From contig OY760937.1 of assembly GCA_963664225.1 (NCBI GenBank), positions 4,032,001 through 4,096,000 of the forward strand: a stretch of DNA of 64,000 nt, read 5' to 3'. Under the pieces are notes generated by a model. The model did not search any database. It was given only the letters and a program-made list of their open reading frames with translations, and had not been told where the DNA came from. Numbering within the stretch: the stretch's first letter is position 1; the number at the start of each line of letters is the position of its first letter. This DNA is from Verrucomicrobiia bacterium. Its GTDB lineage: Bacteria > Verrucomicrobiota > Verrucomicrobiia > Limisphaerales > UBA1319. The position numbers and the translations under genes were made by a program. This document shows positions 57,989-62,253 of the stretch, in pieces.

Positions 57989-58040
57989 GAATACACAGGT
58001 AACTTCTAAACTGAAAATGTTCAATCCTGAATGTGGTTTT

Positions 58041-58088
58041 GTCATGCACCCCCCCCCAAAAAAAAGTTTGCATGACTTATGGCACATG
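58041..58088. promoter_or_regulatory. Putative response-regulator operator, copy 1
   Basis: GTCATG (58041) ... GCATGACTTATGGCACAT (58070-58087); the same motif recurs at 62254-62296. Confidence 0.55.
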
Positions 58089-58121
58089 GTGTTTTTCGGG
58101 GTTTGTGTTTACGATGGGTCC

Positions 58122-59447
58122 ATGAAGGGATCGATCATTCACTGGCTTGCGGGGACGCGGGCCGGAGATTTGCTCGCGACACTCTGGCCGGCCAGTGTGG
58201 CGGGGGATTCGGAATTTCAGCGGCGCAGAAAGATCGCGGTCCGCAGCGCACAACTTGCCGCCCTTGCGTTGGTTGTCGTGGCCATCATTGGGGCGATTGC
58301 GAACAATTTCGATAACTTGTCTGGAGCGCGGCTGGCGGGGTTGGTCGTTTTTGGGTTCGCCTATACGGCGTGGAATATCATCGGCACCCGGGATATTGTT
58401 CGCGTGCTTCTGTGGGAACCGGACAGCACGCCACCGGTGGAGTTGTTGCAGGATGGAAAGGGCAGGGTCATTTTCTATTTTGCGGTTCAGCTCGGACTGG
58501 CGGGCCTGATCTATTCCTGCGTCGAGCCGAGCCTCAAACTGGGGCTGCTGTGGCTGGTGCTTCTGCCGCCCGTGGCGCACGGCGTCATACTGTTGCGCGC
58601 GCCGGGCATCGGCATCGTTGCCTCGGTGACCATGGGGATCTTTGGATTCTTCTTTGTGCGCTGGCACGGGTGGGAGTTGCTGCCCAACGCCCTGCTGGCC
58701 TTTGGATTTGCGGTGTTATTCACGCTGATTTTCACACTGCTAGCGGTCAGCTCTGAAACGGCGCGGGGGGAGGTGCAGCGGCTGGCGTGCGAGCTTTCGG
58801 ACGCCAATGGCAAGCTCCGTGAGTATGCCGTGCAGGCCGAGGAACTGGCGGTGACGCGCGAACGCAACCGGCTGGCGCGGGAAATTCACGATACGCTCGG
58901 CCATTACCTGACCGTGGTGAATGTGCAGATCGAGGCCGCGCGGGCCATGCTGGACCGCGATCCCGACAAGGTGCGCGACTCCCTCCAAAAGGCCCAGTCG
59001 CTCACCCAGGAAGGGCTGCAGGACATCCGGCGTTCGGTATCGTCGTTGCGGGCATCGCCATTGGATAACAAGAATCTGGTGGATGCGCTGAGGCAGGCTG
59101 TTGAGGCCGTGCGCACCAGTGGATTAAGTGCTGAATTGGAGTTAATTGGAAAATGCCGGACATTGTCGCGACCCGCGGAATTGACCCTGTATCGCGCCGC
59201 GCAGGAAGGACTGACCAATGTTCAGAAACATGCCCAGGCTGCGAGCGTGCGGCTGGTGTTGGATTTCAGCGACACGACGAGAACACGATTAACGGTAACG
59301 GACAATGGTGTGGGAAGTGTTGAAAAAACGGGGCATGGGTTTGGTCTGCTCGGACTGCGGGAACGGGCACACCTGGTGGGAGGCGCGTTGAAGATTCGCA
59401 CCGCTCCATCGGCGGGATTTGCGCTGGAAGTGGAGGTGCCGGGATGA
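58122..59447 (+). CDS. Membrane sensor histidine kinase (HisKA_3 type)
   Basis: About 6 TM helices; ERNRLAREIHDTLGH, QEGLTNVQKHA, DNGVG, GFGLLGLRER. Confidence 0.93.
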   Translation: MKGSIIHWLAGTRAGDLLATLWPASVAGDSEFQRRRKIAVRSAQLAALALVVVAIIGAIANNFDNLSGARLAGLVVFGFAYTAWNIIGTRDIVRVLLWEPDSTPPVELLQDGKGRVIFYFAVQLGLAGLIYSCVEPSLKLGLLWLVLLPPVAHGVILLRAPGIGIVASVTMGIFGFFFVRWHGWELLPNALLAFGFAVLFTLIFTLLAVSSETARGEVQRLACELSDANGKLREYAVQAEELAVTRERNRLAREIHDTLGHYLTVVNVQIEAARAMLDRDPDKVRDSLQKAQSLTQEGLQDIRRSVSSLRASPLDNKNLVDALRQAVEAVRTSGLSAELELIGKCRTLSRPAELTLYRAAQEGLTNVQKHAQAASVRLVLDFSDTTRTRLTVTDNGVGSVEKTGHGFGLLGLRERAHLVGGALKIRTAPSAGFALEVEVPG

Positions 59448-60097
59448 AGCCCATACGTGTCTTGCTAGTCGATGACCAAGTCTTGTTTCGGGAGGGGTTG
59501 AGAACACTGCTGTCGATTCATCCAGACATCCAAGTGGTGGGTGAGGCGGCCAATGGCGAGGAGGCTGTGCAAAGTGTAAAGGCGCTGCAGCCGAGGGTGG
59601 TATTGATGGATTTGCGGATGCCGGTGATGGGCGGGGTCGAGGCCACCCGGCGCGTTCGAGCCGTCGATGCCCATTGCCAAATCATCGTGCTGACCACGTT
59701 TGACGATGACGAGGATGTGTTCGATGCGTTGCGGGCCGGAGCGGCCGGATATTTGCTCAAGGACGGGCCGTCCGGAAAGCTGGTGGAAGCGATTCGGGCC
59801 ACGGCGCGGGGTGAATCGTTTTTGGAGCCGTCGATCACGGCCAAAGTGGTGGCGGAGTTCAACCGTCTTTCCAATAACCGGCGACCCGCGATCGCGCCGC
59901 TGGTGGAACCACTTTCGGAGCGCGAATGCGAGGTGCTGAGTCACCTTGCGCAAGGCAGGAGCAACAAGGAAATTGCGGTGGCTCTGGGATTGGCGGAGGG
60001 CACGGTCAAGAATCACATGACCAACATTCTGGGCAAGCTTGGGGTGCTGGACCGGACGCAGGCGGCGCTCAAGGCCAGGGAGTACGGACTTATTTAA
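59444..60097 (+). CDS. NarL/LuxR-family response regulator
   Basis: LVDDQ, MDLRMP, GYLLKD, LSERE.EVL..G.SNKEIA..L...TVKNH; ATGA overlap with the kinase. Confidence 0.95.
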   Translation: MKPIRVLLVDDQVLFREGLRTLLSIHPDIQVVGEAANGEEAVQSVKALQPRVVLMDLRMPVMGGVEATRRVRAVDAHCQIIVLTTFDDDEDVFDALRAGAAGYLLKDGPSGKLVEAIRATARGESFLEPSITAKVVAEFNRLSNNRRPAIAPLVEPLSERECEVLSHLAQGRSNKEIAVALGLAEGTVKNHMTNILGKLGVLDRTQAALKAREYGLI

Positions 60098-60260
60098 CCC
60101 GAAATCCGAAATAGGAACGGCCCATCTGACGCAACCATTTGGCCATCCATGGTTTGAAACCGGCTGTGGATTATTGATTTAATACACCCTCGCCGATTGC
60201 AAATCATGGCTGCCTCAAAGCATTGCATCATCTTGACCCTTCTTATTTCGGATTTCGGGT
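60097..60260. mobile_element. MITE-like non-autonomous element, 164 bp
   Basis: 21-bp terminal IRs matching at 20/21 positions: ACCCGAAATCCGAAATAGGAA (60097-60117) and TTCTTATTTCGGATTTCGGGT (60240-60260); TTA on both flanks once the intron is removed (60094-60096 and 62236-62238); no credible ORF. Confidence 0.7.
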
Positions 60261-62235
60261 GTGCGCCAGTGAAATTGGTAGCCTCGTGGGTGAAAGTCCC
60301 GCCGGTCGAATTAGACGGTTCACGACCGAAATGCAGCGTCCGGGACGAGGCCGTGAGGCCGAACCACAAGCGGGACGCTGAAAGAACTGTCGGGTCGTAA
60401 CGAAAGTAAACCTCATCAAATGAGCTCCGAAACCGAAATAACCGGTAAGCCGAGCCGCTACCCGAACGGCGAAGGCAGAAACGCGGCGTCATCAAATCGT
60501 CAAATGGGCGCTGTTGATTCCGGCGGAGTCAGCGAGGGCGACACGACAGGAAGGGAAACCAAGGTAAGCTGGGAGATCTCTGGAGGCGGGGCGATAAAGC
60601 CTCAACCGCCGGTGCAAGGAGGAACACCCTCCGAGGCCGCACGGGCAGCCAGAGAAGTCGGAGTCTTCCATAGTAGCGAAGAAGCTGGGGCGACCAAAAC
60701 CCCGGCGGAGCCAAGGGAAGGCACTTGGATCGAAGCGAATCAAAACAGCGAGGGACAGGGAGATGGCCTTGAGGGAGTGGAAACACTTTTTCAACGGATA
60801 ACAACCCCGATAAAAGTTCAAAAGCTGCAGCGAGCGCTATATTGCAAAGCCAAGGCTGAGCCGAAGTATCGGTTTTACAGCCTCTACGGAGAACTGCTGC
60901 GGAAGGACGTGCTGGAAACGGCAATGGCCTCCGTGGCGCACAACAATGGCGCGGCTGGGATCGACGGGCAGACATGCGACGTCTATCTTGCCAGCGACGA
61001 AGCCTGGGACCAATGGCGGAACCAACTGCTGGAGGAGTTACGCACGAAGAAGTATCGGCCAAGCCCGGTGAAGCGTGTGTATATACCAAAAGGAGACGGG
61101 AAGCTGCGACCCCTGGGCATCCCGACAGTGAAAGACCGGGTGGTGCAGACAGCGGTGGTGATTGTATTGCTGCCGATTCTGGAAGCCGATAGTCATCCGA
61201 ACAGTTACGCCTATCATCCCAAACGCAATGCCCACCAAGCAATGGAGGCGATCAAGAAGGCTACGCTGACAGGACGCGTCGAAGTTATAGACGCGGACTT
61301 AAGCGGGTATTTTGACAGCATTCCCCACAGGCGTTTGTTGCGCATAGTGGCCAAGCGGGTCAGCGATGGAACAATTCTCAAGCTGATCGCAGGATGGCTG
61401 CGCGCGCCCGTGAATGAACCGCAAAGCGACACAGGGAAAGGCGGGACAAAGGGGGGGCAAGGTCAGAATCGACGGGGGACTCCGCAAGGCGGGGTTGTAT
61501 CGCCGATTTTAGCCAATGCATACCTCAACCAGTTGGATTGGGAAGTCAACGAACGCTGCGAACTCAAACCCGTGATGGTGAGATACGCGGATGATTTCGT
61601 GATACTCGGACAGCCGGGGCAGGGACGGGAACTGATGGAACGACTGGAACGATGGCTGAAGCAACGCGAGTTAGTGCTCAACGAGAAGAAGACCCGCTTG
61701 GTGGACCTCCGCCAGGATGGCATCAAATTCTTGGGATTCGCGCTAACAATGCGACAGGGGAAGGGGAAATGGAAATATCCGCATGTGGAACCCCATCCCA
61801 AGAGCCAGAAGAAGTTTCGAGACGGGATTCGGGAGAAACTCAACCGAAGCACGCTATGGCGTGATATCGGAGAGGTGATTCCCGAGCTCAACAAGAAACT
61901 CAAAGGTTGGAAGGGTTACTTTCACTACGGGAACAGCACCAAGGTGATGGGCCAGATGAACGAATACGTCAGCAGCAAGTTACAACGATGGTTGTGGCGC
62001 AAACACGGATGTAGTCGGGCGCAATGGTCCACATACCCCAAGGAGGATCTCTATGAGCGTTATGGTTTATACCAAATGCCGGAATATGCGGCATGGAAAC
62101 GATGACGTCGAAGCGATGCAACGTATGATCCCCGGAGAGCCGGATGCGGGAAAACCGCCTGTCCGGTTCGATGAGGGGCGAAATGCGACGGTCATTGGCC
62201 ACGGCCATTCAATCCGTCCATTTCGCCTACTCTAC
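60261..62235 (+). mobile_element. Group II intron (IIB-like, no endonuclease domain), 1,975 nt
   Basis: 5' GTGCG; EBS1 loop ACCCGAA (60460-60466) complementary to exon end TTCGGGT; domain V GAGCCGGATGCGGGAAAACCGCCTGTCCGGTTC (62137-62169, AGC triad); domain VI ending CCTACTCTAC. Confidence 0.93.
60777..62105 (+). CDS. ltrA: Group II intron reverse transcriptase/maturase
   Basis: GAAGIDG, RPLGIPTVKDRVVQ, DADLSGYFDSIPH, GTPQGGVVSPILAN, RYADD, FLGF, X domain GWKGYF; no HNH domain; true start uncertain (about 60777-60810), and the longer computed ORF runs through ribozyme domains. Confidence 0.93.
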   Translation: METLFQRITTPIKVQKLQRALYCKAKAEPKYRFYSLYGELLRKDVLETAMASVAHNNGAAGIDGQTCDVYLASDEAWDQWRNQLLEELRTKKYRPSPVKRVYIPKGDGKLRPLGIPTVKDRVVQTAVVIVLLPILEADSHPNSYAYHPKRNAHQAMEAIKKATLTGRVEVIDADLSGYFDSIPHRRLLRIVAKRVSDGTILKLIAGWLRAPVNEPQSDTGKGGTKGGQGQNRRGTPQGGVVSPILANAYLNQLDWEVNERCELKPVMVRYADDFVILGQPGQGRELMERLERWLKQRELVLNEKKTRLVDLRQDGIKFLGFALTMRQGKGKWKYPHVEPHPKSQKKFRDGIREKLNRSTLWRDIGEVIPELNKKLKGWKGYFHYGNSTKVMGQMNEYVSSKLQRWLWRKHGCSRAQWSTYPKEDLYERYGLYQMPEYAAWKR

Positions 62236-62253
62236 TTAACGGAGGTTGCCGAG

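Follow-up and report, generated by a model that had tools for sequence, protein, structure and literature searches.

A group II intron that probably retrohomes into the ends of an IS1380-family transposon and its miniature relative in a Verrucomicrobiia genome

What does a group II intron recognize when it lies directly behind the terminal repeat of a small transposable element? The question is raised by a locus in a Verrucomicrobiia bacterium (assembly GCA_963664225.1, contig OY760937.1) whose genome is a single contig of 5.78 Mb; the stretch analyzed here, called the window, is the 64,000 nucleotides at C1:4032001-4096000 of that contig. A preliminary description, made from the letters of the window alone, had placed an intron between 60261 and 62235, had located a hairpin displaying exon-binding site 1 (EBS1), and had suggested that the intron homes into the terminal inverted repeat of a miniature inverted-repeat transposable element (MITE) or insertion sequence (IS). 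When the sequence was read again all of these coordinates and complementarities proved correct, and we consider it very probable that the group II intron, which lacks an endonuclease and is provisionally labelled IIB-like, is active and spreads by retrohoming into transposon ends. The features on which the argument draws are listed below by window position; IBS denotes an intron-binding site, the exon partner of an EBS.

60093-60097, no strand: left copy of the 5-bp target-site duplication, TTTAA, in which TAA serves the upstream response-regulator gene as stop codon
60098-60259, no strand: 162-bp element classed as a MITE, CCCGAAAT...ATTTCGGG, with 18 simple copies plus 3 with nested insertions
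About 60098-60117 and 60240-60259, no strand: terminal inverted repeats of the MITE
60243-60251, plus strand: IBS2 TTATTTCGG, positions -18 to -10, followed by a 2-nt linker, A60252 and T60253
60254-60260, plus strand: IBS1 TTCGGGT, made up of the last 6 nt of the MITE and T60260, the first base of the right duplication copy
60261-62235, plus strand: complete group II intron (RF02005 and RF00029; 19 copies at 100% identity)
60381, plus strand: tentative EBS3 (A), column 122 of alignment A1
60433-60441, plus strand: EBS2 CCGAAAUAA with core CCGA at 60433-60436, in a domain I internal loop
60454-60470, plus strand: EBS1 hairpin, loop CUACCCGAA, EBS1 ACCCGAA at 60460-60466 (Rfam alignment, RNAalifold, covariation)
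60765-62105, plus strand: intron-encoded reverse transcriptase/maturase (RVT_1, GIIM, TIGR04416)
62137-62169, plus strand: domain V, 33 nt, with AGC triad (RF00029 alignment)
62170-62235, plus strand: domain VI with a big loop insertion (RF00029 alignment and sequence)
62236-62239, no strand: rest of the right duplication copy, TTAA, with T62236 as IBS3

The intron is whole (1975 nt). It opens with GTGCG directly after a 5′ exon, ...TTATTTCGGATTTCGGGT, that ends at 60260, and closes with CTAC (...CCTACTCTAC, at 62235), next to which stands TTAACGG. The Rfam model RF02005 (group-II-D1D4-6) matches 60293-60538 at 54.9 bits (gathering score 49) and RF00029 (domains V/VI) matches 62135-62235 at 49.3 bits (gathering score 40). 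The open reading frame (ORF), placed in domain IV, carries YADD in its translation and scores 120.5 bits for RVT_1, 51.9 bits for GIIM and 357 bits for TIGR04416 (cut-off 300); its start codon is uncertain, the frame being open from 60420 with a GTG at 60777. All the hallmarks of a group II intron were found, namely the GUGYG start, the domain I-IV fold, the domain V triad, the domain VI bulged A and an ORF for reverse transcriptase and maturase, and the ribozyme appears conserved across relatives. The likely branch point is A62229, a candidate 7 nt from the 3′ splice site. No DNA-binding/endonuclease (D/En) domain was found after the maturase domain, RVT_1 and GIIM being the only domains detected, and the protein stops ~25 aa past GIIM.

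The intron occurs 19 times in the genome, each time 100% identical over its full 1975 nt, and in every case the 5′ exon ends in TCGGA[T/G]TTCGGGT, with a 3′ exon that begins TAAA or TTAA. Seventeen of the 19 abut recognizable element ends, 13 at a MITE and 4 at an IS (4 of the 5 IS copies are occupied); the MITE-borne introns are divided between one end type (8) and the other (5), and both ends are occupied in 0/26 elements. The repeat itself is far from unique: the left arm ACCCGAAATCCGAAATA (60097-60113) is the perfect inverse of 60244-60260, and this 17-mer has 53 occurrences in the genome at ≤2 mismatches, 39 of them exact, against 0 for the reversed control, which puts the repeat far beyond chance. 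Beforehand, a single-copy repeat or sister introns in unrelated exons had been named as what would speak against homing into a transposon end; 26 elements and the same 13-nt end at 19/19 copies were found. Contigs from two metagenome runs (X5 and X7) also cross the repeat-intron junction (window 60240-60466) with few base differences, for example a C>T at 60456 that turns a pair of the EBS1 stem into G-U, so near-identical junctions of intron and MITE end are present in other samples.

Of the 26 elements, 21 are MITEs, among which 18 are simple and 3 contain nested insertions, and the other 5 are copies of an IS. The IS copies are 1532 bp long and identical, with ends CCCGAACT...AGTTCGGG and identical 5-bp flanks in 5/5. 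Judged by its transposase (473 aa), which scores 227 bits on NF033539 (cut-off 180) and 95.7 bits on PF13701, the IS belongs to the IS1380 family, the members of which typically start with CC and make 4-5 bp repeats. The IS ends, CCCGAACTCCGA, and the MITE ends, CCCGAAATCCGA, differ at 1 of 12 bases, and the 5-bp flanks match in 16 of the 18 simple MITE copies. By these sequence features the 162-bp element is a MITE, a non-autonomous relative of the 1532-bp IS, and it would be mobilized by the IS1380-family transposase.

To place the insertion point exactly, introns were removed in silico and the element was taken as CCCG...CGGG, upon which the 5-nt flanks are identical in 23 of the 26 elements. 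The duplication is usually TTWAA, with two copies that differ (TTTAT/TTTAT and TTGAG/TTGAG), and from these non-TTWAA flanks it follows that the T after CGGG is part of the duplication and not of the element. The insertion point directly follows the first base of the right-hand duplication (CGGG-T/TWAA, the slash marking the intron), and since that T belongs to the duplication the intron is outside the element, one base into the duplication. This amends the preliminary description in two respects. It had read the TTA after the intron as a 3-bp duplication of the left flank (TTA/TAA), a reading rejected on the identical 5-nt flanks; 5 bp are duplicated, the left copy being TTTAA at 60093-60097 and the right copy T60260 continued, beyond the intron, by TTAA at 62236-62239. 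It had also taken the transposon end itself as the homing site, which stands as to the multicopy end (17/19 copies at IS or MITE ends) and not as to the position: with the insertion one base inside the duplication, the homing site joins the transposon end to the target that the transposon prefers.

Removal of the intron restores the exact 5-bp duplication in 16/17 occupied elements, and thus the introns arrived later than the elements. The same flanks bear on a passenger model, in which MITE or IS and intron transpose together as one DNA unit, e.g., when IS1380-type transposition reads through the right end, and in which intron number follows transposition and not retrohoming. The IS1380-family elements ISEcp1 and ISPme1 are reported to mobilize DNA beside their 3′ end (PMC9330008), and composite transposition does happen in this genome, as a MITE with a nested IS was found twice with different duplications. 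However, in the 16/17 the two duplication copies enclose only the element and the intron interrupts one of them, and among the 17 occupied elements none has a duplication enclosing element and intron together; the intron is found at either element end, the two MITE-with-IS composites have it at different IS ends, and the replication-linked orientation rule described below is unexpected under DNA transposition. We regard joint transposition as extremely unlikely.

In retrohoming, the reading we prefer, the site is read by pairing with the intron RNA. The hairpin GCCG-CTACCCGAA-CGGC at 60454-60470 presents in its loop ACCCGAA (60460-60466), the exact complement of TTCGGGT (60254-60260); EBS1 pairs with exon positions -7 to -1, and IBS1 TTCGGGT is invariant in 19/19 copies. 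Likewise CCGAAATAA (60433-60441) complements TTATTTCGG (60243-60251) exactly, so that EBS2-IBS2 pairing at MITE ends extends from -18 to -10 and leaves a 2-nt linker at -9 and -8. The EBS2 core CCGA pairs with UCGG (-13 to -10), and UCGG is the only part of IBS2 common to all 19 sites. Domain I of the window intron was aligned with that of 12 relatives (76-90% identical there), and the RNAalifold consensus of the 13 sequences comprises 80 pairs, of which 29 show compensatory changes. The EBS1 and EBS2 stretches are both unpaired in the Rfam alignment and in this consensus (EBS2 at columns 171-188). The fold thereby bears out the EBS2 candidate of the preliminary description, which lies in an unpaired internal loop and whose CCGA core pairs in all 19 sites, and of the three exon-binding sites it leaves EBS3 as tentative. 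Another EBS2 register (UCCGA, 60426-60430) was rejected, as its bases are inside a covarying helix (columns 166-170 with 265-269).

Relatives provide the covariation. Naming them by our locus numbers, EBS1 and 5′ exon read ACCUGAA/TTCAGGT in L085 and L167, UCCUGAA/TTCAGGA in L087, CCACGGAU/ATCCGTGG in L088, GCAUCCA/TGGATGC in L089, ACCUUAA/TTAAGGT in L169, GCGUCAA/TTGACGC in L170 and, with one G-U pair, ACCUUAA/TTGAGGT in L164; L171 and L172 match their own exons at 6/7 positions. L163 (head-to-tail junction) and L086 (which begins without upstream sequence) were left out of the exon comparison. Loop position and covariation with the 5′ exons of relatives together confirm the predicted EBS1. 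The preliminary description had proposed to ask whether EBS covaries with IS terminal repeats across homologs; EBS1 does follow the 5′ exons. For EBS2, 4-5 nt are complementary by eye to the exon's own -14/-13 to -10 in L169, L164 and L087. Alignment column 122 holds A in 12 sequences and T in L089, and the 3′ exon starts with T in 7/7 read of those 12 and with A in L089; A60381 might, going by this single covariation event, be an EBS3 that pairs with 3′ exon T+1. The genome also contains natural mutants of the site: of the five simple MITEs without an intron, two carry an altered IBS1 at their favorable end and one has a non-consensus 3′ flank, and ends bearing A or C at -1 are unoccupied, in agreement with the pairing model.

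An intron can also be guided by structure. IIC introns at terminators and attC sites are described as having a 3-4 bp IBS1, no EBS2 and a dependence on stem-loops (PMC7923331), and a similar mechanism here would mean that the intron recognizes the MITE inverted-repeat hairpin in single-stranded DNA and inserts just after it. The MITE strand does fold along its full length (-36.9 kcal/mol, z = -5.3, 0/200 shuffles as good), the insertion is one base past the stem, and in 4/6 relatives with ≥250 nt upstream an inverted repeat has its right arm at or ≤4 nt from the insertion. Yet 4/5 full-length IS copies are occupied with their repeats 1.5 kb apart, two intron copies lie at sites without an inverted partner, and ends with one IBS1 change are empty despite a kept hairpin. 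Moreover, IBS1 and IBS2 are within the 3′ arm, such that the hairpin would compete with EBS pairing, and both the 7-nt EBS1 and the presence of EBS2 depart from the IIC pattern. We therefore find hairpin-guided targeting very unlikely. The 7-nt EBS1 with its exon covariation, the EBS2 loop and the occupied IS ends 1.5 kb apart also set the intron outside class IIC, a view for which the preliminary description had argued from domain V and that these observations sustain.

If intron RNA is what invades the site, the orientation of the copies can tell into which strand it went. Counting as perfect every site with the core and T at -1 (n = 51), 19/28 are occupied in the lagging-strand-template orientation and 0/23 in the opposite orientation. 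The plus-strand copies (n = 13) lie at 2.986-5.61 Mb and 0.045-0.95 Mb and the minus-strand copies (n = 6) at 1.66-2.19 Mb, which makes two blocks on the circle; by our own count 19/27,132 arrangements of 13 plus and 6 minus copies give that. The block boundaries bracket dnaA (2,990,590-2,991,069), a GC-skew switch near 1.4 Mb and two gene-strand-bias switches, and replichores were inferred from these three kinds of evidence. With an origin near 2.99 Mb and a terminus near 1.4 Mb the intron sense strand is always the leading-strand sequence, and thus the RNA went into the lagging-strand template. Lagging-strand bias is reported for endonuclease-less introns (PMC4615759; PMC8914252), and what distinguishes endonuclease-independent, lagging-strand-primed retrohoming, i.e., the absence of a D/En domain and an orientation tied to replication direction, is found here.

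The strand rule also speaks to spread at the DNA level, in which homologous recombination or gene conversion, with the MITE as homology, would carry the intron from an occupied MITE into an empty one. Both ingredients are at hand, the MITE copies being very similar and the introns identical. However, homology would exist on the 5′ side only, as the 3′ flanks are unique past 4 nt; the occupied IS ends have only ~13 nt in common with MITE ends, two sites offer 13-16 nt of homology only, and the strict strand rule together with the empty single-base IBS1 mutants points to RNA pairing. Recombination between MITEs consequently has hardly any probability as the route of spread.

In the mechanism that we propose, excised intron RNA and its bound reverse transcriptase/maturase would reverse-splice into DNA. 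The site is read through RNA-DNA pairing of EBS1 with TTCGGGT and of EBS2, from CCGA up to CCGAAAUAA, with UCGG up to TTATTTCGG, and the T at +1 would probably, if tentatively, be read by the EBS3 adenine. As the site consists of the inverted-repeat tip common to the IS1380-family IS and the MITE plus the first T of the TTWAA duplication, a homing site exists only after a transposon has inserted. Each transposon insertion creates two sites on opposite strands, and the intron comes to lie just outside the element and leaves the transposon intact. Because the protein is without an endonuclease, cDNA synthesis would be primed by the nascent lagging strand at the replication fork; on priming, the data show only that the occupied end is the one whose sense strand is the lagging-strand template. 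Splicing would leave the ligated exons ...TTTCGGGT/TTAAC as the predicted junction.

Several observations weigh against this mechanism or weaken its support. In some relatives, e.g., L085, EBS2 pairing was not found by eye, and EBS3 depends on a single covarying sequence, L089. Nine perfect sites in the favorable orientation are empty. The replichore map is indirect and odd, with arcs of ~4.2 and ~1.6 Mb and a GC skew that stays near zero between 1.8 and 3.6 Mb. The boundary at the origin (2.986 Mb) was chosen once the position of the plus-strand copy 2986270 had been seen; this copy lies 2-4 kb from dnaA, too near for replichore assignment. At two of the 19 copies no more than the final 13 or 16 nt of the repeat are present, without a partner repeat or a recognizable element. 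Lastly, public-run contigs that hold the locus break at repeat boundaries with no joints, and are uninformative on splicing or empty alleles. The unequal replichores could stem from a problem in the assembly or from inversions between identical repeats, of which there are many. The two element-less sites are either element remnants or fortuitous sites; by arithmetic, the 13-mer should turn up in the genome ~0.2-0.3 times by chance. The 5′ flank of one of them, copy 3974269, whose site has only 16 nt in common with the MITE end, is a short dispersed repeat (3974125-3974248), further copies of which lie near 5343432-5343552 and 4356883-4356965 and are 92-94% identical over 83-124 nt.

The surroundings of the intron show how such elements are layered. 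In the window a histidine kinase (HisKA_3, HATPase_c) and a NarL/LuxR-type response regulator lie upstream (58017-60097), the latter in an ORF at 59444-60097 with Response_reg and GerE domains. The MITE is inserted exactly at the stop codon of the regulator, whose TAA belongs to the TTTAA duplication, and the intron is co-oriented with the kinase-regulator operon, such that read-through transcription could occur. Elsewhere in the genome the IS1380-family IS is nested in a MITE at the same internal TTWAA site twice, in opposite orientations (828001-831676 and 2984654-2988329). The outer duplications of these composites, TTGAG and TTTAA, differ, which suggests that the 1699-bp composite transposed as one unit by means of the MITE ends; each composite later gained an intron at the IS end facing the favorable strand. 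The MITE at 264553-266581 contains another nested insertion of ~1.86 kb (ends CACTTTACCCC.../...GGGGTAAAGTG), and its outer flanks mismatch (TCACA vs TTAAA), which suggests a rearrangement between MITE copies.

Is such targeting confined to this intron? Close relatives of its protein (~70-84% identical) were found only on short metagenomic or metagenome-assembled-genome contigs labelled as several phyla. None was present in 40 related genomes, in which the best match was 59% over a fragment, and 400 sampled genomes of the phylum yielded one relative at 51% identity; this locus and two 57% metagenome relatives had no domain I match and were not used. Of the inverted repeats next to relatives, that of L164 bounds a 198-bp element (ends ACCTTAAAACGGCGGT.../...ACTGCCGCTTTGAGGT), and the arms are 36 nt long in L167, 26 nt in L088 and 19 nt in L089; no inverted repeat was found at the insertion in L087 and L172. 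A strict test (16-nt partner, ≤3 mismatches, within 300 nt) was passed by the window, L164 and L088, and also by 43/20,000 random genome positions. Several exons from different samples have ...GTGGTT.AAC.GC..TTTYCAGGT in common, as expected for a dispersed terminal repeat. The 13-mer TCGGATTTCGGGT had matches in 6 of 20 related genomes, most of them among TTCGGAT-like repeats in the 9 loci viewed, where no MITE-type end was seen, and is uninformative on MITE distribution.

Small palindromic elements of ~70-75 bp with repeated ACGGAT motifs and ends CCACGGAT...ATCCGTGG occur in L088 (2406-2480) and L172 (127-197); in L088 the intron relative sits exactly at the end of the palindromic element, and in L172 the similar element is 74 nt upstream of the insertion site. 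In L163, a 2209-nt metagenome contig (78% identical), the intron 3′ end ...CTACTCTAC is joined to the 5′ end GTGCGCC at both contig ends, which is either a head-to-tail tandem or an assembly wrap-around; head-to-tail tandems are reported for the intron RmInt2. The genome holds a second group II intron family in four copies at 1677061-1678290 (+), 2329700-2330929 (-), 5161940-5163169 (+) and 5604340-5605569 (-) (loci L081-L084). Its protein is 43-44% identical to that of the window intron and it too matches D1D4-6 (70.4 bits in L081); identity between the copies starts at ...TGGAAAGCGCC, with no obvious GUGYG, and the upstream flanks carry a loose motif, TGTG.TCTTTGAG. Relatives at ~40% identity from Bradyrhizobium and Nitrobacter match Rfam D1D4-4, a different family.

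It is conceivable, and to us rather doubtful, that the D1D4-6 clade of the intron (relatives ~77% identical, metagenome bins of several phyla) as a whole specializes in IS and MITE termini as a non-destructive hyperparasite. The EBS1 loop would then track terminal-repeat variants, ...TTTCGGG-T here and ...TTTCAGGT, ...TTTGAGGT and ...ATCCGTGG in relatives, and the supply of homing sites would be renewed by a host transposon that is still mobile. An outward-reading intron might also be expressed from the outward promoters reported for the IS1380 family, or be transferred by the read-through transposition of that family; a promoter scan of 59800-60800 returned 0 sites, and an outward promoter in the MITE is unsupported.

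The genome offers a natural experiment on site choice by an endonuclease-less intron, with 51 near-identical sites in both orientations and point mutants in one genome. A second, independent lineage has converged on transposon inverted repeats, here with the host transposon undamaged, which bears on the coexistence of layered mobile elements and on homing-site saturation versus selection for intron proliferation. For retargeting work beyond the usual model hosts, the locus supplies a candidate intron together with a compact non-coding target that is naturally present in many copies.

Homing into IS elements is well documented for group II introns (PMC3522654), among them RmInt1 in ISRm2011-2 and E.c.I1, E.c.I3, E.c.I4 and E.c.I9 in specific IS elements (PMC3522654; PMC5894124). 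Like these, the window intron has its natural homing site in a multicopy IS with partial occupancy. Unlike that of RmInt1, insertion of which is said to block the spread of ISRm2011-2 (PMC5894124), the site here is non-coding and outside the element. With IIC introns it has in common an intergenic insertion directly after the 3′ arm of an inverted repeat, and it differs from them in the 7-bp EBS1, the EBS2, the 33-nt domain V with AGC and the use of IS ends 1.5 kb apart.

The closest precedent is RmInt2, which answers the question left by the preliminary description of whether such targeting had been described. According to its 2014 report, RmInt2 homes into the inverted repeats of ISRm17, with two sites per element, one of them always on the lagging strand (PMC4615759); its lagging-strand bias is shown experimentally and its IBS1-IBS2 linker is 2 nt (PMC4615759; PMC5894124). 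The window intron resembles it in having no endonuclease and several identical copies in one genome, in taking an IS inverted repeat as target with two sites per element on opposite strands, and in its lagging-strand-template bias, its 2-nt linker (-9, -8) and its tolerance of as few as 4 EBS2 pairs. In other respects the two differ. Their proteins are 28% identical, and RmInt2 matches D1D4-2 whereas the window intron matches D1D4-6. Class D has the C-terminal motif LX3AX3PXLF[V/A]HW (PMC4615759); the window protein, given its 28% identity to that of RmInt2 and a C-terminus ...YGLYQMPEYAAWKR without the motif, falls outside the class. At the one RmInt2 locus retrieved (L243, from the coordinates in the paper's supplement), the intron lies ~22 nt inside ISRm17, has the outer repeat tip as its 5′ exon and reads inward; the window intron is outside the element, one base into the duplication, reads outward and leaves the transposon untouched. 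The ISRm17 transposase belongs to the ISNCY family, whereas the IS here is assigned to IS1380 and most hosts are MITEs, and the mobility of RmInt2 was shown by experiment whereas that of the window intron is read from sequence. Our literature search, which found RmInt2 in ISRm17, returned nothing on introns at MITE ends or IS1380 ends. The homing of introns into IS inverted repeats is known already; what is new here is an independent lineage, a geometry outside the element and hosts that are mostly MITEs.

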